A stretch of 64,000 bases of DNA. It comes from an uncultured delta proteobacterium. Lineage in GTDB: Bacteria > Desulfobacterota > Binatia > Binatales > Binataceae. Positions within the stretch are counted from its first letter, which is position 1. Every line of letters begins with the position of its first letter. The notes beneath the pieces were generated by a model. It ran no database searches. It had not been told where the DNA came from and worked only from the letters and a program-made list of their open reading frames with translations. Shown here in pieces: positions 2,483 to 63,630 of the stretch. A program made the position numbers and the translations under genes. The stretch is taken from contig CAWCDG010000005.1 in assembly GCA_963794325.1 (NCBI GenBank), positions 96,001 to 160,000 on the forward strand, written 5' to 3'.

Positions 2483-4178
2483 TCAGCCCTCCAGGGCCCG
2501 GTTGATGCGGTTTTCGATCTCGCTGACTTTGAACGGACGGCCCTGGATTTTGTTGAAGCCGAAGGCGTCGATCAGGTAGTCGGCGCGAATCATCTTGAGT
2601 AGTTGTCCCATGTTCATTTCGGGAATCATGACCTGCTTGAAACGCTTGAGCGTCTCTTCGAGGTCGTGCGGCAGCGGATTCAGATAGCGCAGATGCACGT
2701 GCGAAACTTTCTTGCCCTTCGCGCGCAAATGTTTGACGGCCTCGCGAATTGGCCCGTAGGTCGAGCCCCATCCGAGCACGACCAGGTCGCCTTCGGCGTC
2801 ACCGAAGACTTGCGTCGGCGGAATCTCGCGCGCGATGCCGGCAATCTTGCGCGCCCGCGTCCGCACCATCAGCTCGTTGTTGGCCGGCGAGTAGCTGACG
2901 TTGCCGGTCAGGTTCTCGCTCGACAGTCCGCCGACGCGATGCTCGAGGCCCTTGGTTCCCGGCACCGCCCATGGACGGGAAAGCGTCTCCGGCTCGCGAT
3001 TGTACGGCAGGAAACCTTCGGGATTGGTCGCGAACTCGACTTTGATTTCGGGCAGCTTGTCGGCGTCGGGCAGCAGCCACGGCTCGGAGCCATTGGCGAG
3101 CTGGCCGTCGGTGAGCAGAATCACCGGCGTCATGTATTTCACCGCGATGCGCACCGCCTCGTAGGCGCAGTCGAAGCAGTCGGCCGGCGTCGACGCCGCG
3201 ATAATCGGAATCGGCGACTCGCCATGCCGTCCGTACATCGATTGGAGCAAGTCGGCCTGCTCCGGCTTGGTCGGCATGCCAGTGGACGGGCCCGCGCGCT
3301 GGATGTCGGTGATCACCAGCGGCAGCTCGACTTTCACCGCGAGCCCGACCGCTTCGGCCTTCAAGTTCATGCCGGGGCCTGAAGTTGTGGTGATCGCAAT
3401 CGATCCACCGAATGCCGCGCCAATCGCGGCGCAGACGCCGGCGATTTCGTCCTCGGCCTGGAAAGTATAGACCGGAAAATTCTTGAAGCCTGAAAGTTCG
3501 TGCAGGATGTCGCTGGCGGGCGTGATCGGATACGAGCCCAGGAACAGCGGACGTCCCGACTTGACCGCCGCCGCGACGAATCCGAGCGCGGTCGCGCTGT
3601 TGCCCGTGATATTGCGATACAGTCCCGGCGCGATTCGCGCGGCCGGGACTTCGTACGAGCTCGCGAACATCTCGGTCGTCTCGCCGTAGTTGAACCCGGC
3701 CTTCAGCACCTTGATGTTGGCCTCGAGAACTTCGGGCGTCTTCTTGAAGCGGCTCTCGAGATAGGTGAGCGTGCTCTCGATCGGCCGCTGATACAGCCAC
3801 GACAGCATCCCGAGCACGAACATGTTGCGGCATCGGAAGACCGCGCGATTGTTCAGACCCATCCCGTGCACGGCGAGCGAGGTGAGCTTGGTCACATCGA
3901 CTTCGATCACCTGGAATTTGTCGAGCGAATGGTCGGTGAGCGGATTGGTCTTGTAGCCGGCGCGCTTGACATTGGAATCGGTGAACGCCTCGCGGTCAAC
4001 GATAATGACGGCGTTTTGCGGGACGTCCTCGATATTGGCCTGCAGCGCCGCGGGATTCATCGCGACCAGCACGTTGGGCTCGTCGCCGGCGGTGAAAATC
4101 TCGCTGCTCGAAAAATTCAGCTGAAAGCCGCTGACTCCGGCCAGGGTGCCTTGCGGGCGCTCGGATTTCAGCGGGAAA
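2483..4178 (-). pseudogene. korA: 5'-truncated 2-oxoacid:ferredoxin oxidoreductase alpha subunit (duplicate)
   Basis: Nearly identical to 5211-7103 but homology stops at FPAEIRAP (4178); lacks first ~65 codons; one extra base near 4155. Confidence 0.85.
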
Positions 4179-4202
4179 GCGTTCGCTGGAAATATTTGCG
4201 GG

Positions 4203-5204
4203 TCAGTTGGTCACAGTCCAGGTATCGCCCTTGCCTAGCAGCGTCTTCAGGTCGCCGGCGCCCTGCTTTGCTTTGGCGTCTGCGAGCTGCTTGTTCACGG
4301 CGCCGTCGTAGGTCGGTCGCGACACCGCGTAGAAGACGCCCACCGGAGTCGGCAGCGGAGGCTCGAAGTTGCCGAGCATGAATGCGAGCGACAGATTGGT
4401 CTCGTCGTGCACGACGAGATCCGTTTCCGTGACGCCTGCGCCGAGCTGTACTGCTTCGGGACGCATGCCGTTCATCCGGATTCCCATGTCCCGATTCTTG
4501 CCGAAGATGAGCGGCTTGCCGTGCTCGAGAACCAGCTGATGGTCCGCCTTGAGGGCCTTGTCGCTGACGTCGTTGAATGCGCCGTCGTTGAAGATGTTGC
4601 AATTTTGCAGAATCTCGACGAATGACGCGCCGCGATGCGCATGCGCCCGCTTGAGCATCTCACCGAGATGCTTCTGCTCGACGTCGACGGTGCGCGCGAC
4701 GAAGGTCGCGTGCGTGCCGAGCGCCACCGTGATCGGATTGAAGGGAAAATCGACGGAGCCGGCCGGCGTGGACTTGGTGACCTTGCCCACTTCTGAAGTC
4801 GGTGAGTACTGGCCCTTGGTGAGCCCGTAAATTTTATTGTTGAAGAGCAGAATTTTCAGATCGACGTTGCGCCGCAGCACGTGGATCAGATGATTGCCGC
4901 CGATGGACAGGCCGTCGCCATCACCGGTGACCACCCATACGTCGAGATCGGGCCGCGAAACCTTGAGTCCCGTCGCGAACGCCGGCGCGCGGCCGTGAAT
5001 CGTGTGGAAGCCGTAGGTGTTCATGTAGTACGGGAACCGGCTCGAGCATCCGATGCCCGAGATGAAGACCGTGTTCTCCGGCGCGATGCCGAATTCGGGC
5101 ATCGTCTTTTGCACCGCGGCCAGAATTGCGTAATCGCCGCATCCGGGACACCAGCGCACTTCCTGGTCGGAGACGAAATCCTTGCGATTAAGAGCGGTAG
5201 CCAT
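4203..5204 (-). CDS. korB: 2-oxoacid:ferredoxin oxidoreductase beta subunit, copy 2
   Basis: Same motifs as copy 1; differs by 5 residues, all C-terminal. Confidence 0.93.
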   Translation of the reverse strand: MATALNRKDFVSDQEVRWCPGCGDYAILAAVQKTMPEFGIAPENTVFISGIGCSSRFPYYMNTYGFHTIHGRAPAFATGLKVSRPDLDVWVVTGDGDGLSIGGNHLIHVLRRNVDLKILLFNNKIYGLTKGQYSPTSEVGKVTKSTPAGSVDFPFNPITVALGTHATFVARTVDVEQKHLGEMLKRAHAHRGASFVEILQNCNIFNDGAFNDVSDKALKADHQLVLEHGKPLIFGKNRDMGIRMNGMRPEAVQLGAGVTETDLVVHDETNLSLAFMLGNFEPPLPTPVGVFYAVSRPTYDGAVNKQLADAKAKQGAGDLKTLLGKGDTWTVTN

Positions 5205-5210
5205 TTTCGA

Positions 5211-7103
5211 TCAGCCCTCCAGGGCCCGGTTGATGCGGTTTTCGATCTCGCTGACTTTGAACGGACGGCCCTGGATTTTGTTGAAGCCGAAGGCGTCGAT
5301 CAGGTAGTCGGCGCGAATCATCTTGAGTAGTTGTCCCATGTTCATTTCGGGAATCATGACCTGCTTGAAACGCTTGAGCGTCTCCTCGAGGTCGTGCGGC
5401 AGCGGATTCAGATAACGCAGATGCACCTGCGAAACTTTCTTGCCCTTCGCGCGCAAATGTTTGACCGCCTCGCGAATTGGCCCGTAGGTCGAGCCCCATC
5501 CGAGCACGACCAGGTCGCCTTCGGCGTCACCGAAGACTTGCGTCGGCGGAATCTCGCGCGCGATGCCGGCAATCTTGCGGGCCCGCGTCCGCACCATCAG
5601 CTCGTTGTTGGCCGGCGAATAACTGACATTGCCGGTCAGGTTCTCGCTCGACAATCCGCCGACGCGATGCTCGAGGCCCTTGGTTCCCGGCACCGCCCAT
5701 GGACGGGAAAGCGTCTCCGGCTCGCGATTGTACGGCAGGAAACCTTCGGGATTGGTCGCGAACTCGACTTTGATTTCGGGCAGCTTGTCGGCGTCGGGCA
5801 GCAGCCACGGCTCGGAGCCGTTGGCGAGCTGGCCGTCGGTCAGCAGAATCACCGGCGTCATGTATTTCACCGCGATGCGCACCGCCTCGTAGGCGCAGTC
5901 GAAGCAGTCGGCCGGCGTCGACGCCGCGATAATCGGAATCGGCGACTCGCCATGCCGTCCGTACATCGATTGGAGCAAGTCGGCCTGCTCCGGCTTGGTC
6001 GGCATGCCAGTGGACGGGCCCGCGCGCTGGATGTCGGTGATCACCAGCGGCAGCTCGACTTTCACCGCGAGCCCGACCGCTTCGGCCTTCAAGTTCATGC
6101 CGGGGCCTGAAGTTGTGGTGATCGCAATCGATCCACCGAATGCCGCGCCAATCGCGGCGCAGACGCCGGCGATTTCGTCCTCGGCCTGGAAAGTATAGAC
6201 CGGAAAATTCTTGAAGCCTGAAAGTTCGTGCAGGATGTCGCTGGCGGGCGTGATCGGATACGAGCCCAGGAACAGCGGACGTCCCGACTTGACCGCCGCC
6301 GCGACGAATCCGAGCGCGGTCGCGCTGTTGCCCGTGATATTGCGATACAGTCCCGGCGCGATTCGCGCGGCCGGGACTTCGTACGAGCTCGCGAACATCT
6401 CGGTCGTCTCGCCGTAGTTGAACCCGGCCTTCAGCACCTTGATGTTGGCCTCGAGAACTTCGGGCGTCTTCTTGAAGCGGCTCTCGAGATAGGTGAGCGT
6501 GCTCTCGATCGGCCGCTGATACAGCCACGACAGCATCCCGAGCACGAACATGTTGCGGCATCGGAAGACCGCGCGATTGTTCAGACCCATCCCGTGCACG
6601 GCGAGCGAGGTGAGCTTGGTCACATCGACTTCGATCACCTGGAATTTGTCGAGCGAATGGTCGGTGAGCGGATTGGTCTTGTAGCCGGCGCGCTTGACAT
6701 TGGAATCGGTGAACGCCTCGCGGTCAACGATAATGACGGCGTTTTGCGGGACGTCCTCGATATTGGCCTGCAGCGCCGCGGGATTCATCGCGACCAGCAC
6801 GTTGGGCTCGTCGCCGGCGGTGAAAATCTCGCTGCTTGAAAAATTAAGTTGAAAGCCGCTGACTCCGGCGAGCGTTCCCTGGGGCGCGCGGATTTCAGCG
6901 GGAAAGTCGGGCAGTGTTGCTATATCGTTGCCGGCCAGCGCCGATTCGGCCGTGAACTGCATCCCCGTCAACTGCATCCCATCGCCAGAGTCGCCCGCAA
7001 ACCGGATAACAACGTGGTCGCGCTTCAGATGCGGCTTGAGCGCAGACGCTGCGGAACCGTGCGACTCGGCAGCTTGCCCAGCCGCCTCAGGTGGTACAGC
7101 CAT
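5211..7103 (-). CDS. korA: 2-oxoacid:ferredoxin oxidoreductase alpha subunit (fused gamma-alpha)
   Basis: AGDSGDGMQ, YPITPAS, QAEDEIA, TSGPG, QRAGPSTG. Confidence 0.94.
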   Translation of the reverse strand: MAVPPEAAGQAAESHGSAASALKPHLKRDHVVIRFAGDSGDGMQLTGMQFTAESALAGNDIATLPDFPAEIRAPQGTLAGVSGFQLNFSSSEIFTAGDEPNVLVAMNPAALQANIEDVPQNAVIIVDREAFTDSNVKRAGYKTNPLTDHSLDKFQVIEVDVTKLTSLAVHGMGLNNRAVFRCRNMFVLGMLSWLYQRPIESTLTYLESRFKKTPEVLEANIKVLKAGFNYGETTEMFASSYEVPAARIAPGLYRNITGNSATALGFVAAAVKSGRPLFLGSYPITPASDILHELSGFKNFPVYTFQAEDEIAGVCAAIGAAFGGSIAITTTSGPGMNLKAEAVGLAVKVELPLVITDIQRAGPSTGMPTKPEQADLLQSMYGRHGESPIPIIAASTPADCFDCAYEAVRIAVKYMTPVILLTDGQLANGSEPWLLPDADKLPEIKVEFATNPEGFLPYNREPETLSRPWAVPGTKGLEHRVGGLSSENLTGNVSYSPANNELMVRTRARKIAGIAREIPPTQVFGDAEGDLVVLGWGSTYGPIREAVKHLRAKGKKVSQVHLRYLNPLPHDLEETLKRFKQVMIPEMNMGQLLKMIRADYLIDAFGFNKIQGRPFKVSEIENRINRALEG

Positions 7104-7235
7104 CTCAGTCCAATCTCCTTATGGTTAAGACCCGATCGAAAGTTAAATCGAAGCCATGCAAATACTCGGACACGCGGATTTAAAGCATAGCTAATCGAGG
7201 GGAACCATTAAAGGGCCGCCTATCGGCAGGTCAAA

Positions 7236-7529
7236 TCATCGAATCTGGAAGTCCTTGAATTCCCCTGTGAAATCGGACCACTCTTCGCGTACGGCGGTTA
7301 CGTGCGCTGACGGCGGGCCCAAATGTGCCCATGCTGCAAGCATCTGCAAGTTCTCACGGCTCCCTTCCGCGACAATTTCGACGTTCCCATCGGGTATATT
7401 GCGCACCCATCCGGCAAGTGCGAGATCTTTGGCCTCGTCGTAAGCAGAGAATCGAAAGCCGACGCCCTGCACCCGTCCGCTGATGATTAGATGCAACCTC
7501 GCGCGCTGTTGTTTGTTTTGAGTGGTCAC
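7236..7529 (-). CDS. acyP: Acylphosphatase
   Basis: ISGRVQGVGFR and GWVRN motifs; GTG start at 7529 inferred from family length. Confidence 0.9.
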   Translation of the reverse strand: MTTQNKQQRARLHLIISGRVQGVGFRFSAYDEAKDLALAGWVRNIPDGNVEIVAEGSRENLQMLAAWAHLGPPSAHVTAVREEWSDFTGEFKDFQIR

Positions 7530-7560
7530 ACCGGTTCGAAAGCGCTTCGGGTGGTGCCTA

Positions 7561-12986: not shown

Positions 12987-13889
12987 TCAGGCGCCCTTTT
13001 TTACCGGCGCGGGCGGTGCGTCGTCGGCCCACAAAATCTTGTGATAGTCGAAACGCATGCCTTCGATGATATTGAATTTGACGATTTCGAAATAGGGTGA
13101 CAAGTCGAAATCGCGCGGCGTGACCAGCGTCGGCGAGACCATCCTGAGGGCGCCGTATTGCAGCCAGCCGGTTGTCGATTTCGAGCCGATAGGCCACAGC
13201 TTGCGCTTGGGCGGCTCGGGCGGAGCCTGGGGCGGCAACTGCTCGTAGTTCGCCACGATCGGAAATTTCACGCGATGGAACGACGACGCGATTACGCTCG
13301 AACAGATGACGCGGGTCGGCTCGCCGCTGCCGAATTGCAGCGCCCGGCGGCGAAAGCGCGCGGGCACCAGGCTCACCGGCAGAAAGTAGCGCGCGAGATC
13401 GATCACGTTGCGCAAATCGTAAGTGTCGCCGACGCTGCGAATCGCCTCGTCCATCACGTCGGCCAGGTCCACCGCCGACAGGTTGAACGGGCGGCATACG
13501 CGGAGGTTGAAATCGCGATATTTGGTGAGCGGCGAGAGCACCACGCCGGCCTCGACGATCGCCTCGACCACCAGGAAATTCGCTTCTTCGCCGAATTGCG
13601 CGACCAGCGGCGCCTTCAGCTCGGGATTGCGGCGAATCGGCTCGTCACCGACGTACAGCGCCGAATGCGACCACGAGCTTTGCGTCAGATATTTGATGCA
13701 TTCGCTGATACGCTCGTTTCCCTCGACCAAAATCACGTCGCCTTTGCGAATGTGACGCTTGAGCGCGGAAATGTCGTTCGGTATGTGGAGCGCGTAACTC
13801 TTTAAAGGCTTGGTGAGCAGACCGACGGCCCAATCGCTCATCCGGTCCAGCAACCAGGAAATGATCCCCGATTTTTCGCGCCGAGCCAT
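12987..13889 (-). CDS. YiiX/YebB-like permuted papain-like (NlpC/P60) amidase
   Basis: GDVILV, SWSHSALY (His) preceding ICSS (Cys), YD motif, VTPRDF. Confidence 0.85.
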   Translation of the reverse strand: MARREKSGIISWLLDRMSDWAVGLLTKPLKSYALHIPNDISALKRHIRKGDVILVEGNERISECIKYLTQSSWSHSALYVGDEPIRRNPELKAPLVAQFGEEANFLVVEAIVEAGVVLSPLTKYRDFNLRVCRPFNLSAVDLADVMDEAIRSVGDTYDLRNVIDLARYFLPVSLVPARFRRRALQFGSGEPTRVICSSVIASSFHRVKFPIVANYEQLPPQAPPEPPKRKLWPIGSKSTTGWLQYGALRMVSPTLVTPRDFDLSPYFEIVKFNIIEGMRFDYHKILWADDAPPAPVKKGA

Positions 13890-13971
13890 TTCAGTGAATG
13901 AATATAGGAATGGAGGGCGGGGCGAAACAATGCGGGTGCGGCGGTGCCAGGAACCTAGCCGTCAAACCACG

Positions 13972-14013
13972 TAACCCCTAACCCCTTCCCATAGTGGGAA
14001 GGGGAACCGGATT
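13972..14013. repeat. REP-like family 1 copy (reverse)
   Basis: taacccctaaccccttcccatagtgggaaggggaaccggat. Confidence 0.9.
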
Positions 14014-14062
14014 TGAGAAAAACGGGAAGGCGACGGGATTACAGATGGAAAACAGATAAAGT

Positions 14063-15121
14063 TCAGGTTTTGAACTGGCCTACGATTGCGTAGAACGGGA
14101 CGTTCAGGGTTGCCTGGTCAGGGTCGTCGGTCTTTATCGTTAAATTGCCGCGGAGTTGGCCGTCAGGGGTGCCGTGTCTCAGAGTGACGGTCACCTTGTA
14201 TTCCTTGCCCGGGGTGACTGGCTCCGCGACAGCGCCGACGGCGGGACTGCTGCTTGCAACGTCGAGCACCTTGACCGGATGCGGCCCCTGGTTGCTCAGC
14301 TTGAAAATTCTCACGATGTCCTGTCCATGCGGCACGATCCCGAACGAAACCTGCGCCGGGTCGACGTTTAGATCGCCAGTCACCGTTCCAAAGACGTCAA
14401 CCTGCAGCGGCACGCGATTCGTGGTGATTTTAATCGTGTCGTCGAATGGCCCGGTCGGCATCGACTTGAGCAGCGAGACTTTCAGCAGCGCGCCGGGTTT
14501 GCCGTCGGGACGCTTCTCCTGCTCGACCTTGATCGACGAGTTCGAGTTGCTGATCGGGCCGACCGAGAACGCGCCGCGCGCCGGATTCAAATCGTTGACC
14601 AGCAATTCCTTGGTGCTTTCGGTTCCGCGTTTTACGTCGCCGAACGCGACTTCGCCCGGCACCGCCTCGACCTGCTTCTTGACGATCCCCTGCATCGTCA
14701 TCGCGACTTGCGGATTGTCGGGATCGTTGGTGAACGCCGTGATCGTGCGGACCTGGTGGCCCTTCTGGAAATGCGTGTCGAACGCCACCGCGATATCGGT
14801 CGTGTCGCCCGGCGCGACGTGCATCTTCGAGGGCTGACCGGTGGTGCATCCGCACGAAGTCTTCACGCCAGTGAGATCCAGATAGCCTTGGCCGTTGTTC
14901 TTGATGGTGAAGGTATGCGTGACCATCTGGCCTTCGAGCGCACTGCCGAAATCGTACAGCGGCGTGCTGACTACGGCCTTCGGCGCATGGCCCGGGGGCG
15001 CGCTGTTGCCGCCGGGAATCAGCGGATTCATGCTGCTGTCCTGCGCGAAGGCCGGCGCACTCGCGATCAATCCAATCATCAGTGTGAGAAGAATTCGTTT
15101 CATGGTTTTCAAGTTAGTCAC
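14063..15121 (-). CDS. Secreted DUF1573 (Ig-like repeat) protein
   Basis: Signal peptide, YDFG, V.TSCGCT, three Ig-like repeats. Confidence 0.85.
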   Translation of the reverse strand: MTNLKTMKRILLTLMIGLIASAPAFAQDSSMNPLIPGGNSAPPGHAPKAVVSTPLYDFGSALEGQMVTHTFTIKNNGQGYLDLTGVKTSCGCTTGQPSKMHVAPGDTTDIAVAFDTHFQKGHQVRTITAFTNDPDNPQVAMTMQGIVKKQVEAVPGEVAFGDVKRGTESTKELLVNDLNPARGAFSVGPISNSNSSIKVEQEKRPDGKPGALLKVSLLKSMPTGPFDDTIKITTNRVPLQVDVFGTVTGDLNVDPAQVSFGIVPHGQDIVRIFKLSNQGPHPVKVLDVASSSPAVGAVAEPVTPGKEYKVTVTLRHGTPDGQLRGNLTIKTDDPDQATLNVPFYAIVGQFKT

Positions 15122-15188
15122 GTGCCTTGCGGACGAGGCTGTCGAGCCTCGAACCGCACTCTATCAATTATGGCGCGGAGCGTTGCGG

Positions 15189-16571
15189 TCAAGAGGCCTT
15201 GCTTACCGGTGCGTGCGCGGCTTCGCGATGGGCCGGTTCATAGCGGGTAAGAAAATCGGTCGCGTATTCGCCGCGATTGAAATCCGGATCGTGCAGAATC
15301 TTCAGATGCAGCGGGATGTTGGTCTTGATGCCGTCGACTACGTACTCGCGCAGCGCAGCCTTGGCCCGCGCGATAACTTCCGGCCGCGTCTCGGCATGCA
15401 CGATCAGCTTTGCAATCAGCGGATCATACTGCACCGGCACCCGATAGCCGTCGTACAGCGCCGTCTCGACCCGCACGCCCAGACCGCCCGGCGTATGATG
15501 ATTCGTCACGACGCCCGGCGACGGAATGCCACGCTCGGGATCCTCGGCGTAGATGCGAAACTCCATCGAGGCGCCCTCGAAGGTCACCTGCCGCTGCTTG
15601 AGCGCGAGCTTCTCGCCCATCGCCATCTTGATGCTTTCCTTCACCAGGTCGACGCCGGTAACCATCTCGGTCACGCCGTGCTCGACCTGGATGCGGGTGT
15701 TCATCTCGATAAAATAAAACTCGCCGCTGCCCGCGAGCAGAAACTCGACAGTGCCGACGTTGGAATAGCCGACGACTTCCGCCGCGCGCACCGCCGCCTT
15801 GCCCATCTTCTCGCGCAGCCGCGGGGTCAGAATCGGGCACGGCGATTCCTCGACGACCTTCTGATGACGCCGCTGGATCGAGCAGTCGCGCTCGCCAAGA
15901 TGAATCGCGTTGCGCTGCAGGTCGGCAAGAATCTGAAACTCGACGTGACGCGCGCGCTCGAGATATTTTTCGAGATACATTTTCTTCGAGCTGAACGACG
16001 CTTCGGATTCGCCCTGCGCCAGCGCAAATAAATGGGTGAGCTCGTCCGCGTTGCGAACGACTCGCATCCCCTTGCCGCCACCGCCGGCCGCCGCCTTGAT
16101 CAACACCGGATAGCCGAGGCGCTTGGCGTCCACTTGAGCCTCGCGCAACTCGGTGACGCCAGTGCCCTCACTACCCGGCAGCACCGGAACGCCGGCACGC
16201 TTCATGATTCGTCGCGCGCGCGGCTTGTCGCCCATCAACCTGATGTGACGCGCACGAGGGCCGACGAAATTCAGCCCCGACTTCTGGCACGCTTCGGCGA
16301 AGTCGCCGTTTTCGGACAGGAAGCCGTAGCCCGGATGAACCGCATCGGCGCCGAAGGTCGTCGCGGCGCTGAGAATCGCCGGGATATTGAGGTAGCTGTC
16401 TTCCGCCGCCGGCGGGCCGATACATACCGACTCGTCGGCCATCCGCACATGCAGCGCATTCTTGTCGGCGGTCGAGTAAACCGCGACGGTTAAAATTCCC
16501 AGCTCACGGCATGCGCGAATTATCCGGATTGCGATTGTCCCGCGATTTGCGACCAGCAGTTTTTTGAACAT
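15189..16571 (-). CDS. accC: Acetyl-CoA carboxylase, biotin carboxylase subunit
   Basis: LVANRG, HPGYGFLSEN, GGGGKGM, ERDCSIQRRHQK, EMNTRIQVEH. Confidence 0.95.
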   Translation of the reverse strand: MFKKLLVANRGTIAIRIIRACRELGILTVAVYSTADKNALHVRMADESVCIGPPAAEDSYLNIPAILSAATTFGADAVHPGYGFLSENGDFAEACQKSGLNFVGPRARHIRLMGDKPRARRIMKRAGVPVLPGSEGTGVTELREAQVDAKRLGYPVLIKAAAGGGGKGMRVVRNADELTHLFALAQGESEASFSSKKMYLEKYLERARHVEFQILADLQRNAIHLGERDCSIQRRHQKVVEESPCPILTPRLREKMGKAAVRAAEVVGYSNVGTVEFLLAGSGEFYFIEMNTRIQVEHGVTEMVTGVDLVKESIKMAMGEKLALKQRQVTFEGASMEFRIYAEDPERGIPSPGVVTNHHTPGGLGVRVETALYDGYRVPVQYDPLIAKLIVHAETRPEVIARAKAALREYVVDGIKTNIPLHLKILHDPDFNRGEYATDFLTRYEPAHREAAHAPVSKAS

Positions 16572-58936: not shown

Positions 58937-61210
58937 TTACGCGGCTTGCTTGGTTTCGATTGCCAGGCTCTCTTCCGCGATCGATCCGCGCTTCGAGAAC
59001 AATACCGCGATCGCCAGCGCGATGATCGACACGACCACGATTGCGACGCGCAACGTCGTCACGCCGCTGAGCTCGATCGTCGTGAACGGCGCCGCCAGAA
59101 TCGCAACCAGGTTCATCACCTTGATCATCGGGTTCAACGCCGGGCCCGCCGTATCCTTGAACGGATCGCCGACCGTGTCGCCCACCACCGACGCCTTGTG
59201 CACGTCGGTGCCCTTGCCGCCGAGGAAACCGTCTTCGACTTTTTTCTTGGCGTTATCCCAGTTGGCACCCGCATTCGACATGAACACCGCCATCAACTGG
59301 CCCGTCAGGATGGTGCCGCCGAGGAATCCACCGAGCGCGCCCGCGCCGAGGCCGAAGCCGACCAGCAGCGGCGAGAAGATTGCGAGGATTCCGGGGCCGA
59401 GCAGTTCTTTCTGCGACGCCGCCGTCACGATATCGACACACGCGCTGTAGTCGGGCAGCTCTTTGCCCTCCATGATTCCCGGATGCTCGCGAAGCTGACG
59501 GCGCACCTCGAACACGATCTGATACGCCGCGCGGCTGACCGCTTTAATCGCGAACGAGCTGAACAGGAACGGCACCGCGCCGCCGATCATCAGGCCGACG
59601 AACACGGTCGGCATATTGATCTGCACGCCAATCGATCCGAGATGCGCCTCATCTATAAACGACCGGAACAGCGAGACCGCCGCAAGCACCGCCGTGGCAA
59701 TCGCGAGGCCCTTGGTAAGCGCCTTGGTGGTGTTGCCAATCGCGTCCATCCACGACAGCGTCTTCGACGCCTCCTCCTGATGGATTCCGGCCATCTCGAA
59801 GATGCCATGCGCGTTGTCGGTGATCGGTCCGTAGGTATCCATCGCGAGGATGTAGCCCGTGGTCGTCAGCAGGCCGAGTCCGGTCAGCGCGATTCCGTAA
59901 AACTGCAGCGCGAGCGACTCGTGGAAAATCGCCATCGCGCCGATGATCGCGGCCGCAATCACCAGCAGCGCCCACACCGACGACTCGAGTCCCTCCGCCA
60001 TGCCCGACAGGATCAATGTCGCCGGGCCGGTCCGCGCCGCCATCGCGGTCTCCGTGACCGGGCCCTTGTCCGGATGCGTAAAATAGTTCGTCAGCCACAG
60101 CGTCACGACCGCGAGAAGAATTCCGAGCGACGCGCAGCATGCGAAGCGCCAGTCGGTCGCTCCGGTGCGCGGGTCGTCGAGGTAAAGATAGTTCACGACG
60201 AAGAATCCAATCACCGATGCGACCGCCGAGGTCATGTACCCAATATTGATCGGGCGCATCGGGTCGAGCATTTTGCCCGCCGGTACGCGCACCGCCATGA
60301 TTCCGATAATCGACGAGAACACGCCGACGCCGCGCAGTATCAGCGCGAACATGATCAGCTTGACCGCGAACATGCCCGCGTATTGCCCGTAGGCCGCGAT
60401 AAAGTCCGACTCCTGCAGCGCGTACGCCGCCAGAATGATCGCCGCGACCAGCGTCACCTCGTACGACTCGAACACGTCAGCCGCCATGCCAGCGCAGTCG
60501 CCGACGTTGTCGCCAACGTTATCGGCGATCGTCGCGGGATTGCGCGGGTCATCCTCCGGTAGATCCTGCTCGATCTTGCCGACCAGGTCGCCGCCTACGT
60601 CAGCCGCCTTGGTGTAGATTCCGCCGCCGACGCGCATGAACAATGCCGCCAGCGATCCACCGAAGCCGAAGCCGACCAGGACCTTCATCGCGTTCTCGCG
60701 GAAGACCAAAAAGATGATGGTCGCGCCGAGCAATCCCAGCCCAACCGTGAACATGCCCGAGACGCCGCCCGCCTTGAATGCGAGTTCCATCGCGTCCTTG
60801 AAGCTGGTGAGCGCGGCGTTGGCGCTGCGGACGTTGCCCTTGACCGCGAGCCACATCCCGACGTAGCCGGCGCCGTATGATGCGGCGACACCCATCAGGA
60901 ATGCAATCGAGATTCCCAGCGGCAGGTACAGGCCCTGGTAAACGTTGCGGTACATGAAAAAGAGCGCGAAAAAAATCGCGCCGACGAACCAGATCATGGT
61001 TTTGACCTGGCGTCCGAGGTAGGCCATCGCGCCGACCTCGATCGCATCGGACACGTCGGTCAGTGATTTAGGTCCGGGGTCGGCGGCCAGCACTACGCGG
61101 ATCAACACGACACCGTAGGCCAGCGCGACCAGCGCCGAGACCAGCACCAGCCACAGGATCATGACCTGTCCGCTGGTTAAAGTGGGCAGAACGATATTCG
61201 CTTCGCTCAT
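58937..61210 (-). CDS. hppA: Membrane ion-translocating pyrophosphatase, K+-independent type
   Basis: GGGIYTKAADVG.DLVGK.E, DNVGDNVGD, GNTTKA, GDTVGDPFKD. Confidence 0.95.
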   Translation of the reverse strand: MSEANIVLPTLTSGQVMILWLVLVSALVALAYGVVLIRVVLAADPGPKSLTDVSDAIEVGAMAYLGRQVKTMIWFVGAIFFALFFMYRNVYQGLYLPLGISIAFLMGVAASYGAGYVGMWLAVKGNVRSANAALTSFKDAMELAFKAGGVSGMFTVGLGLLGATIIFLVFRENAMKVLVGFGFGGSLAALFMRVGGGIYTKAADVGGDLVGKIEQDLPEDDPRNPATIADNVGDNVGDCAGMAADVFESYEVTLVAAIILAAYALQESDFIAAYGQYAGMFAVKLIMFALILRGVGVFSSIIGIMAVRVPAGKMLDPMRPINIGYMTSAVASVIGFFVVNYLYLDDPRTGATDWRFACCASLGILLAVVTLWLTNYFTHPDKGPVTETAMAARTGPATLILSGMAEGLESSVWALLVIAAAIIGAMAIFHESLALQFYGIALTGLGLLTTTGYILAMDTYGPITDNAHGIFEMAGIHQEEASKTLSWMDAIGNTTKALTKGLAIATAVLAAVSLFRSFIDEAHLGSIGVQINMPTVFVGLMIGGAVPFLFSSFAIKAVSRAAYQIVFEVRRQLREHPGIMEGKELPDYSACVDIVTAASQKELLGPGILAIFSPLLVGFGLGAGALGGFLGGTILTGQLMAVFMSNAGANWDNAKKKVEDGFLGGKGTDVHKASVVGDTVGDPFKDTAGPALNPMIKVMNLVAILAAPFTTIELSGVTTLRVAIVVVSIIALAIAVLFSKRGSIAEESLAIETKQAA

Positions 61211-61391: not shown

Positions 61392-61419
61392 AGGCCCCGG
61401 CGCGACGGCCGGGGCCTTT
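61392..61419. terminator. Intrinsic terminator-like hairpin
   Basis: aggccccggc-gcgacg-gccggggcct. Confidence 0.7.
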
Positions 61420-61446: not shown

Positions 61447-62421
61447 TCACGGCGCTTTCAGGTTCACGTTGGCGCACGGTCCATCGACAACCGTCTGCAC
61501 CAGGTTGGTGCCAGAGTTTTTCTGCGCTTTCAGCGATGCAGTGCTGCCGCGGCAATTCATAGTTACGCCGTCGGAGTGATTCTTGCTCGCAGTCACGCCG
61601 GAAATGATGCCAAATCTTCCGGGGCCGAAATCGATACCGGTCCCCGCGTTGCCGGTCGATTTGCTCGCCGTGACCATGTTCTCGCTGCTCGACGGGAACT
61701 CGATTCCGTCGTCCCCATTGCCGGATATGGTTGATTTGATAACGCCATTGTCGTCGCTGGCCAGTTCGACGCCGACGGAGGAGTTTTTCTGGATTTTGCT
61801 GCTAACCACGAAGCTGCAGCAATCTGACATTTCCACGCCGACGCCGGTGTTTTTGCTGACCGTGCTTCCGACCAACGTATTGCAGCAGCTCGTGATAACG
61901 ATTCCGCCACCGTGGTTACCGTTAGCCTGGACCTTGGTCAAACTGCTGTCGTCCGAGAGTATGTGGATGCCGACGCCACCGTTGTTGTTCGAGGTGACCG
62001 AGCTCAGCGTGTTGCAACACTCTTTGATGAGGATACCGTCACCGGTGTTATTCGAGGTATTGAGGTTGGAAATTATCGCACTGCCCGAGGTGGGCAGGCT
62101 GACGCCCGAGGCAAAGTTGCGGATTTTGCCGTTGGCGATGATTGCGTTATCGCGATCGCCGCCGTCGTCGACGATCCCGGAACCGCTGCCGTTGCCAGTA
62201 ATGGTCTTTCCATTCAAATCGATCGCTACATTGTCTGCGGCAATTATCAGGCAGTCGGTGGTGGCGCTAAGGTTGGTGGTCAGCACGTAATTCCCCGGCG
62301 CCGCGAGCGTTCCGCACATGGACACCATGGTGCTTGCCGTCGCGCGCCCGCAGAGGCCGCCAATCAGCAACATCGCAAATAGCGCAGCGGTAAGCCGCCG
62401 CGCCGAAAACTCGATATTCAT
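61447..62421 (-). CDS. Secreted right-handed beta-helix repeat protein with CC/DD rungs
   Basis: GGAGG RBS, signal peptide, CG.L..PG.Y.L..NL cap, N...GI repeats. Confidence 0.85.
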   Translation of the reverse strand: MNIEFSARRLTAALFAMLLIGGLCGRATASTMVSMCGTLAAPGNYVLTTNLSATTDCLIIAADNVAIDLNGKTITGNGSGSGIVDDGGDRDNAIIANGKIRNFASGVSLPTSGSAIISNLNTSNNTGDGILIKECCNTLSSVTSNNNGGVGIHILSDDSSLTKVQANGNHGGGIVITSCCNTLVGSTVSKNTGVGVEMSDCCSFVVSSKIQKNSSVGVELASDDNGVIKSTISGNGDDGIEFPSSSENMVTASKSTGNAGTGIDFGPGRFGIISGVTASKNHSDGVTMNCRGSTASLKAQKNSGTNLVQTVVDGPCANVNLKAP

Positions 62422-62521: not shown

Positions 62522-63490
62522 CTAATTCAGCTTGTTGTTCAGCTGGGTGCAGGTGCCGCCAGAGGTCGACAATGGACCGCCGTTGTTGTTTCTGGTCGTC
62601 AGGCCAGTGATCGCGCCCGGACATTCCACGCTGGCGCCCGCGCCCTGATTTCCACTGGCTACACTGCTCGTGATCTGATTGTCAGTGCCGGCCAGCAAAA
62701 TCCCGTTGCCGGTGTTGCTGCTGGCGTTGGTGCGGGTGACAAGATTGTCGCTGTTGGTGAGATTCGCTCCGTTGCCGTGGTTAAGCGCGACAGTGCTTTC
62801 GATGACGAAGTTGCAGCATCCCGACAGGGCGACACCGTCGGCACTGTTGCTCTGCACTTTGCTGGAAATCACGAAGTTGCAGCAATCGTTTCCAGACACC
62901 CCGGTCGCGCCATTGCCGGAAACGGTACTGTTGGAGACGGTTGTGCAACAACCAGTCGCGATTATGCCGCCGCCTGGGCCGTTGTGGTTCACCTGAACGT
63001 TGTTCAGCGTGTAGCAGCAACTCAGGGCCATAATTCCGGTGGTGCCGTTACTGTTCGTCGTTACGGAATCGAGCGTGCCACAGCACTCACCCACCAGGAT
63101 CCCGGTCGCGGTGTTATTTGACGAATCGACGTTGCGGATCACCACACAGCATGAGGTGTCGAGTCCGATGCCGACGCTGAAGTTGCGAATCTTGCCGTTC
63201 GCAATTGCCATCGACTCGAAGTTGCCGCCGCCGTCGGAGATTCCGTCGCCGGTGCCGTTACCTGTGATGGTGTGCCCTTTCATGTCGAGCGAAACGCCTT
63301 CGCTGCCGATGACGATACAGGTACCCGTCGATGTCAGATTCTTCGTCAGGAAATAATTCCCCGCCGCAGACAACGTCCCGCAGGCTGATACTGCGGTGTC
63401 GGCGCGGGATGGCGACGAGGCCAACACCAGCAGCGTCAACGCGCCCAATACGCCGACAGCGTATCCTCTGAAACCCCTCTCGAATGACAT
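62522..63490 (-). CDS. Secreted right-handed beta-helix repeat protein with six CC rungs
   Basis: GGAGG RBS, signal peptide, same cap, ~22-aa repeats. Confidence 0.87.
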   Translation of the reverse strand: MSFERGFRGYAVGVLGALTLLVLASSPSRADTAVSACGTLSAAGNYFLTKNLTSTGTCIVIGSEGVSLDMKGHTITGNGTGDGISDGGGNFESMAIANGKIRNFSVGIGLDTSCCVVIRNVDSSNNTATGILVGECCGTLDSVTTNSNGTTGIMALSCCYTLNNVQVNHNGPGGGIIATGCCTTVSNSTVSGNGATGVSGNDCCNFVISSKVQSNSADGVALSGCCNFVIESTVALNHGNGANLTNSDNLVTRTNASSNTGNGILLAGTDNQITSSVASGNQGAGASVECPGAITGLTTRNNNGGPLSTSGGTCTQLNNKLN

Positions 63491-63630
63491 AGTTCCTCCC
63501 CTGACCGCTCTGCGGAAATTGGCGCTAAATCGAATTTCGTAGAAGCGCACGAAGGTGAAGCGAACTCGAATGCGCCGCGAGCGGTCGCCAGAGCTTATGC
63601 GCGACGTCGAGGCGATTGCAACTCAGATAA

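Follow-up and report, generated by a model that had tools for sequence, protein, structure and literature searches.

A ladder of six Cys-Cys turns at the predicted seam of two paired, putatively exported beta-helix proteins from an uncultured member of the Binataceae

The window analysed here is a 64,000 nt stretch of contig CAWCDG010000005.1 (assembly GCA_963794325.1, positions 96,001–160,000 of the forward strand), which comes from an uncultured delta proteobacterium of the family Binataceae. Near its right end it carries two adjacent genes, here named A and B, that code for small right-handed parallel beta-helices. Protein A bears a Cys-Cys (CC) pair in each of six consecutive coils, a ladder that is strongly conserved in its closest homologues, and the pairs are gained and lost coil by coil, with Asp-Asp (DD) as the commonest replacement. 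The two proteins are predicted to form a heterodimer with the ladder in the seam between them. The explanation towards which we lean, tentatively, is that the pairs are stacked vicinal (adjacent-residue) disulfides lining this seam. A first-pass annotation, made from the sequence alone, had drawn attention to the ladder of A; the tandem paralogue, the predicted heterodimer that seats the ladder in its seam and the CC-for-DD swaps go beyond it.

Translation of gene A reproduced the six pairs in consecutive repeats just as they had been described, at residues 114, 136, 158, 181, 203 and 225 (spacings of 22, 22, 23, 22 and 22 residues) and in the contexts TSCC, GECC, LSCC, TGCC, NDCC and SGCC. 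No His or Met accompanies the pairs. They account for 12 of the 16 Cys of the protein, the other four being single (C37, C58, C290 and C314). A word-indexed search returned 91 homologues of A besides the query (E ≤ 1e-3), and their source names, where given, were Candidatus Binatus or Binataceae. All six pairs are kept in 37 of the 44 closest homologues (P0003–P0046), while the remaining seven, some of which are truncated, retain three or five. Among the 38 full-length close homologues (54–79% identity), C114, C115, C136, C137, C158, C159, C181 and C182 are invariant, and C203, C204, C225 and C226 are conserved at 90% or more. As the mean column identity is only 63%, the ladder exceeds what chance or repeat inheritance would leave and, as judged from these alignments, is under selection; the expectation that homologues would share the Cys positions was therefore borne out. 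An exhaustive HMMER search counted 2282 representatives with E ≤ 1e-3, of which 36 have E ≤ 1e-30. At least one CC is present in 40 of the 143 representatives newly listed by this search, and at least three in 22, the spacing being mostly 22 residues. One relative, P0097, has eight. No locus was found for the distant ladder-carrying relatives when P0097 and P0058 were compared with metagenome contigs and P0058 with genome contigs.

The CC pairs turn over as wholes. Across eight coil positions in 205 relatives there were 476 cells with CC, 596 without Cys, 558 gaps and only 10 with a single Cys, several of the last belonging to distant, badly aligned rows. A FastTree phylogeny, built from 74 full-length relatives after 19 short or distant rows out of 93 had been removed and the CC columns excluded, requires at least 34 changes from CC to none (2, 1, 1, 12, 7 and 11 for the successive coils), and the single-Cys state occurs in none of its rows. 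Each pair thus behaves, in the aligned sequences, as one unit that is gained or lost coil by coil. There are 45 CC coils, in 32 relatives, with no Cys in either adjacent coil, and the number of CC coils is odd (1, 3 or 5) in 44 of the 115 sequences that carry any CC. The commonest replacement is DD (44 cells), followed by Gly-Ser, Gly-Asp and Gly-Glu, and in B-type proteins the CC/DD swap takes place in near-identical surroundings (..SCCNTLV.. versus ..SDDNTLV..). On this comparative evidence a self-contained pair, be it a vicinal disulfide or a bidentate ligand, does fit the turnover.

The fold of A is ordinary. Proteins A and B match the Pfam family PF13229 (Beta_helix) with 48.1 and 62.6 bits, respectively (cut-off 25.9), and an AlphaFold2 model of A, built from a 93-row alignment, is a regular right-handed beta-helix with three strands per coil and coils of about 22 residues (predicted local distance difference test score (pLDDT) 93.0, predicted template modelling score (pTM) 0.88), in agreement with the fold first proposed. 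In the model, every CC is the centre of a 5-residue non-strand segment between a Gly-Ile/Val-x-Leu strand and the next strand. A 2-residue turn comes after the strand that follows the CC turn, and a near-invariant Asn ladder (N126, N148, N170 and N193) lies after the third strand of the coils; because of where this turn and ladder are placed, the CC turn can be named T3 and the strand following it PB1 (parallel beta-sheet 1), by analogy with pectate lyase. The six pairs occupy the same turn of six consecutive coils and, in the model, are stacked in register along one edge of the PB1 sheet, as had been anticipated. Long T3 or T1 loops are absent from the model.

Foldseek and VIA matches of the family are solved beta-helices of a generic kind, namely tailspikes, AlgE4/AlgE6, AlgG and NosD. 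The B-like domain of P0094, a two-domain relative described below, aligned with AlgE6 (Z 24.8, root-mean-square deviation (rmsd) 1.9 Å over 290 residues) and with NosD (7o0y_A, Z 21.5). The ESM Atlas returned generic Beta_helix/NosD clusters only, and no NCBIfam model matched A. A PDB profile match to AlgG (E 1.1e-5) covers about 100 residues, and in its alignment the CC columns of A face 'VG'. Identity as a mannuronan C5-epimerase (AlgG/AlgE) is not supported at equivalog level: B scores 15.7 bits against the AlgG equivalog NF038177, which has a cut-off of 700, and A is unmatched. The NosD family PF05048 is matched by A marginally (25.0 bits) and by B with 37.3 bits (cut-off 23.6). Proteins of this role are encoded with nosF/nosY (an ATP-binding cassette (ABC) transporter) and nosZ, and neither these genes nor any ABC transporter was present in the 18 kb examined around the pair; a NosD role is thus not supported by gene context, although the sequence cut-off was passed. 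An ice-binding face was also considered and discarded, as the outward residues of PB1 and PB2 form no regular Thr-x-Thr array.

Gene B lies 100 nt downstream of A on the same strand and encodes a protein with about 43% identity to A. CC is present in three of its coils (residues 162, 206 and 228 of the open reading frame, ORF) and DD in two (184 and 250), so that by coil number CC is found at 2, 4 and 5 and DD at 3 and 6; one of its CC coils is isolated. A and B are the only two family copies in their own genome, and the order A then B on the same strand recurs in eight distinct genomes. When mature A (residues 31–322) and mature B (ORF residues 57–351), each with its own alignment, were submitted to complex prediction, the interface score ipSAE was 0.95 in all three runs, compared with 0.00 for the best of three controls. 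The runs gave 238–249 contacts with a partner pLDDT of 95 and agreed in at least 97% of contacts. Of 80 solved complexes 58 attain this ipSAE mark, as do 2 of 110 mismatched pairs, a rough calibration since own alignments were used here. The predicted contacts run antiparallel (A163 with B255 and B278, A117 with B320, A293 and A315 with B121) and in register (column 13 with 13, column 15 with 15), and in both chains each coil contributes its T3 pair, the pair of outward-facing residues of PB1 and the first residue of T1. All 12 ladder Cys of A, together with the CC and DD pairs of B, fall within the predicted interface. A and B are therefore predicted to form an antiparallel, face-to-face heterodimer. 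Such a pairing would correspond to a rotation about the strand direction, and so both T3 edges would share one seam, which agrees with the column contacts given above.

Two further observations lend support to this model. The outward PB1 columns are hydrophobic (Kyte-Doolittle values of +0.48 in A and +0.86 in B) and, at 0.81 bits (A) and 0.70 bits (B), are close to the core columns in conservation, which is not so for the outward columns of PB2 (1.29 and 0.85 bits; −1.72 and −1.85) or PB3 (1.67 and 1.90 bits). Secondly, the family occurs not only as single genes and tandem pairs but also in fused form. In P0094 a linker of about 6 residues joins an A-like domain to a B-like one, the latter lacking a signal peptide; other two-domain proteins are P0095 (L020, ORF 653–2806, from genome G621 of the same family), P0133 and P0152. 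AlphaFold2 modelled P0094 with a pTM of 0.84, and low-rmsd structural matches to it end at the domain border even with long helical targets, which argues against one continuous helix. The short linker suits an antiparallel pair.

In the explanation tentatively preferred here, A and B would be a two-gene unit of exported minimal right-handed parallel beta-helices that most likely assemble as an antiparallel face-to-face heterodimer through burial of their PB1 sheets. The T3 apex of each coil would carry either Cys-Cys or an acidic/small pair, and the six CC of A would line one edge of the interface, opposite the mixed CC/DD edge of B. A vicinal disulfide in each CC coil is the most likely arrangement, because CC evolves as an indivisible, self-sufficient unit. 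With six such disulfides spaced about 4.8 Å apart, the stack would present an unbroken, rigid and non-polar ridge of sulfur that could seal and stiffen the seam, or wall one side of a long groove. Other features of the family and its hosts are relevant to the redox state. Full-length relatives (at least 280 aa) have an even number of Cys in 113 cases and an odd number in 24, and those without any CC in 35 and 4 cases, respectively. C37 and C58, 21 residues apart, are found together in 190 of 200 sequences, and the same holds for C290 and C314, 24 residues apart, in 157 of 171; inter-coil disulfides between these cap cysteines are probably used in the A family. The genome of the pair (G000) also encodes three DsbA-family CPFC proteins with signal peptides (L041, L042 and L043).

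Several points weigh against stacked disulfides at a heterodimer seam. DsbB (PF02600) and VKOR (PF07884) were not found in the pair's own genome (85% complete), nor in five other pair carriers of the same genus (G476, G691, G344, G488 and G551; 94–98% complete). Exported-like ORFs of the genome were split into 259 with even and 376 with odd Cys counts, and the rest into 1113 and 1333, although the filter used was crude and home-made, had no calibration genome, also takes membrane proteins and lipoproteins, and missed A itself. The envelope may thus not be strongly oxidising, which would favour free thiols. A CC-for-DD swap is equally to be expected of a metal-ligand pair. Vicinal disulfides are rare and strained, and we know of no stack of six. 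As to the dimer, the three control proteins were unrelated and included no beta-helices, and the A-B score may reflect a homodimer mode common to the whole family, A and B being paralogues. P0094, the only close fusion, is known from a single sequence on a single contig of 2450 bp. Finally, the CC pattern of B varies between genomes while that of A stays complete, and the two edges are therefore not strictly complementary.

Of the competing explanations the one that survives best, although we consider it rather unlikely, is a thiolate strip, in which the CC pairs would stay reduced and each act as a bidentate ligand for soft metals or metalloids (Cu(I), Zn, Cd, Hg, As(III)). The binding sites would follow the coil stack or, with the CC and DD of B taking part, span the A-B seam, and would serve storage, buffering or sensing. 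Bidentate units account for unit-wise turnover and isolated coils as well as disulfides do, and the absence of detectable DsbB and VKOR from all six genomes of the genus, like the lack of a proteome-wide even-Cys bias in the crude test, would be in keeping with reduced pairs. The top replacement, DD, is a hard-metal ligand pair, and Asp-cis-Asp pairs have been described as forming cation sites (PMC12102755). The weak NosD match of A (25.0 bits) has also to be mentioned, but this family name is historical and says nothing on copper binding here. Against metal binding, the CC pairs come without His or Met, no metal-resistance, chaperone or transporter genes were found in the 18 kb around the pair, and the signal is Sec-like rather than of the twin-arginine (Tat) type. 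The four single Cys are found together in stacked pairs, the behaviour expected of disulfides, and exported DsbA-like CPFC proteins are encoded in the genome. Moreover, generic repeats of the beta-helix fold have Ser or Asp at the positions equivalent to CC, for which reason DD may be just the default state.

A bolder reading of the predicted seam, and one that we regard as unlikely, is that it works as a redox or metal device with many sites in a line. The two chains would bring face to face, over about 40 Å, as many as nine stacked Cys-Cys pairs as well as Asp-Asp pairs. These could hold soft metal ions, Cu(I) for instance, in a row, or form a zipper whose oxidation state controls how the helices assemble. 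If true, this would be a cysteine array of a kind not described for any beta-helix.

Bonding between coils was one of the possibilities raised in the first-pass annotation, and it has fared less well. In such a zipper, or shuffling ladder, the Cys of adjacent coils would bond (1-2, 3-4, 5-6) or exchange and so brace the helix lengthwise. The geometry would permit this, since stacked positions of adjacent beta-helix coils are about 4.8 Å apart; the cap cysteines (C37/C58 and C290/C314) lie about one coil apart and co-occur, and the contiguous CC coils of A are even in number. An obligatory zipper is nevertheless disfavoured by the unit-wise turnover of CC and the existence of isolated CC coils (45 in 32 relatives, and one in B, where CC is limited to coils 2, 4 and 5). 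It is also at odds with the odd number of CC coils in 44 of 115 sequences, and with losses that are coupled within a coil and not between neighbours. We judge it improbable.

Equally improbable in our view is that A is a monomeric carbohydrate-binding or carbohydrate-active beta-helix, the predicted dimer being an artefact. The PB1 face and T3 edge would then form the polysaccharide groove that is usual in this fold, with CC disulfides stacking on sugar rings and Asp pairs acting through Ca2+. The nearest solved folds are indeed alginate epimerases, lyases and tailspikes (as in the AlgE6 and AlgG matches above), PB1 is the conserved face, the groove of such enzymes is built from PB1 and T3 (PMC9410043), and vicinal disulfides are known to contact sugars (PMC12102755, PMC7782687). 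Yet the AlgG equivalog score is far below its cut-off, the long T3 or T1 loops that wall such grooves are absent, and no polysaccharide genes were found in the 18 kb examined. The exposed Phe, Ile and Leu on PB1 suit a protein interface, and the conserved gene pairing and the fusions suggest that two helices act jointly. A chain of Fe-S or otherwise bridged metal centres (isolated sites being a separate matter) is unlikely given the Sec-type signal and a coil spacing of 4.8 Å compared with a metal-sulfur bond of 2.3 Å.

The first-pass annotation knew of no described family with such a ladder, and this view stands: no characterised family that explains the CC pairs was found among the curated Pfam and NCBIfam families, and no description of a CC ladder on a beta-helix in the full-text literature, the coverage of which excludes subscription journals. 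Generic PbH1/PF13229 proteins, the AlgE4/AlgE6 A-modules, AlgG and NosD resemble A in the right-handed helix, the coils of about 22 residues, the Asn ladder and the Gly-Ile/Val-x-Leu strands, but have no Cys-Cys at the T3 apex. A differs further from AlgE/AlgG in lacking long loops and an epimerase-level sequence match, and from NosD in the absence of nosF, nosY and nosZ from its surroundings. Other regular many-Cys arrays in small, repetitive exported proteins are those of TmAFP, an insect antifreeze beta-helix with 12-residue coils and cross-core disulfides between non-adjacent Cys, and of the copper storage protein Csp1, a four-helix bundle that holds Cu(I) as Cys thiolates; unlike A, neither has adjacent CC on a 22-residue coil.

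Three cases from the literature come closer. The fucoidan lyase FdlA has a cysteine ladder that was called unusual and stabilising (PMC9410043), and like that of A it consists of Cys stacked on successive coils of a right-handed beta-helix. FdlA, however, has one Cys per coil, five in total, at the T2-PB3 juncture inside the helix and beneath the groove, whereas A has two adjacent Cys per coil that lie at the T3 apex, can be replaced by Asp-Asp and are placed by prediction at a protein interface. Vicinal disulfide turns, whose described roles are ligand binding, structural stabilisation and switching (PMC12102755), likewise have two neighbouring Cys within a turn of an exported protein (export of A being judged by inspection); one of them, C298-C299 of the SusD protein Bt1762, forms an 'extensive non-polar surface' (PMC7782687). 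The known cases are single pairs, whereas A has six in register and P0097 up to eight, the bonding in A being putative. Lastly, in a model of the ice-nucleation protein, two beta-helices pair lengthwise by burying a solvent-exposed ladder (PMC3196904), which recalls the predicted A-B pairing along an exposed side-chain ladder. That model has a tyrosine ladder, a preference for parallel pairing and 16-residue repeats (PMC3196904); A and B are predicted to pair antiparallel through their PB1 faces, the seam holding the Cys pairs.

Three things are thus new here: a Cys-Cys turn that stacks along the helix, the exchange of whole Cys-Cys pairs for Asp-Asp, and the arrangement of two helices as gene pairs or fusions with a predicted seam. 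Should the Cys be bonded within their pairs, A would be, to our knowledge, the first natural stack of vicinal disulfides and would represent a new way of building or sealing the interface of a beta-helix; should they instead be reduced, an exported protein of this uncultured soil lineage would carry a linear array of thiolates of a new kind. In either case the A/B family offers a natural experiment, in which CC can be compared with DD in the same turn, coil by coil, and across single, paired and fused architectures. It should be useful for studying how a rare backbone/side-chain motif is used, and as a compact scaffold for protein design.

The positions of the two genes and their features are collected in Table 1. 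The reading frame of A extends on the minus strand over 62522–63550, with the assigned ATG at 63490 internal to it; this start is supported by the GGGAGGA Shine-Dalgarno sequence 4–10 nt upstream and by the near-invariance of M1 across homologues. The claim that A is exported was upheld by inspection: the N-terminus has R5 and R8, then the hydrophobic segment YAVGVLGALTLLVLA, and then SRA ahead of D31, and to the eye looks like a Sec signal peptide. A twin arginine is absent. A30 and T32 are invariant in close homologues, and AlphaFold2 gave a pLDDT below 50 for residues 1–19. The crude home-made signal-peptide filter flagged B and not A. Aligning 24 proteins of the B type, together with the presence of GGGAGGGG ahead of the ATG at 62421, fixed the start of B at M28 of its frame. 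The hairpin after B is likely the end of an A-B transcript, on weak evidence, as the pattern scan gave four sites against 3.0 expected from shuffled sequence; it reported no terminator-like site on the minus strand in the 100 nt spacer between A and B.

Table 1. Coordinates in the window of genes A and B and their associated features
Feature	Position	Strand	Basis
Gene A, 322 aa; minimal right-handed beta-helix, six CC coils, export signal by inspection	62522..63490	−	ORF and translation
Signal-peptide-like N-terminus of A, residues 1–30; proposed cleavage SRA/D	63401..63490	−	By inspection
Shine-Dalgarno-like GGGGAGGA, 5' of A start codon	63494..63501	−	Read from sequence
CC ladder of A, residues 114–226; six coils, Cys-Cys mid-turn before PB1 strand	62813..63151	−	Positions, AlphaFold2, conservation
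Gene B, tandem paralogue of A, 324 aa from M28 of ORF	61447..62421	−	ORF, alignment, PF13229
Shine-Dalgarno-like GGGAGGGG, 5' of B start codon	62426..62433	−	Read from sequence
Terminator-like hairpin, 10 pairs, 9 of them G-C, 30 nt past B stop	61392..61417	−	Pattern scan

The A-B pair is an accessory gene pair of soil bacteria. At E ≤ 1e-10 it was detected in 6 of the 29 other species in its genus, in 9 of 94 genomes at family level and in 21 of 401 at class level (own genome included), and the matches beyond the Binataceae are distant and single-copy. The stretch is carried by soil-metagenome DNA runs only, with no RNA run among the carriers. Related loci show signs of loss. In genome G603 (L010, 7809–8846, the same place as L018), A matches only to residue 255 and then continues into unrelated sequence and a stop, with no B gene between it and the H+-pyrophosphatase gene, and this looks like a decayed copy of the pair. 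On a long contig of a related genome (L011, 7968–9736) the A-like and B-like frames are both broken, which could be due to assembly indels or pseudogenes.

Directly downstream of the pair is a gene for an H+-translocating pyrophosphatase (PF03030, E 4e-238; 58937–61210, minus strand), the sole syntenic neighbour, found in six of nine related loci. The pyrophosphatase is 95–99.6% identical in protein sequence across related loci, a conservation far above that of A and B. Besides the pyrophosphatase, the neighbours of the pair include a luciferase-like oxidoreductase, a haloacid dehalogenase-type (HAD) hydrolase and an aminotransferase, among others. No functional hint emerged from the gene neighbourhood at the pair's own locus or at L007, L008 and L012. 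At L012, which belongs to another genus of the family, a single-copy relative with four CC coils lies amid very large reading frames of 1212 and 1079 aa (3915–7553 and 13234–16473), which have DUF7948, SBBP and NHL repeats and Ig-like domains, and near DUF4410 and Lcl_C proteins, and the region may be a surface-protein neighbourhood; a candidate third paralogue beside this relative was rejected (hhalign probability 1.7%). Past the end of the window, on the same contig (L003, 13174–15775), genes for a CDP-alcohol phosphatidyltransferase and a B12-binding radical S-adenosylmethionine protein adjoin genes for HAD hydrolases, a nucleotidyltransferase and a class-III aminotransferase, and these may form a small biosynthetic cluster, apparently unrelated to the ladder.

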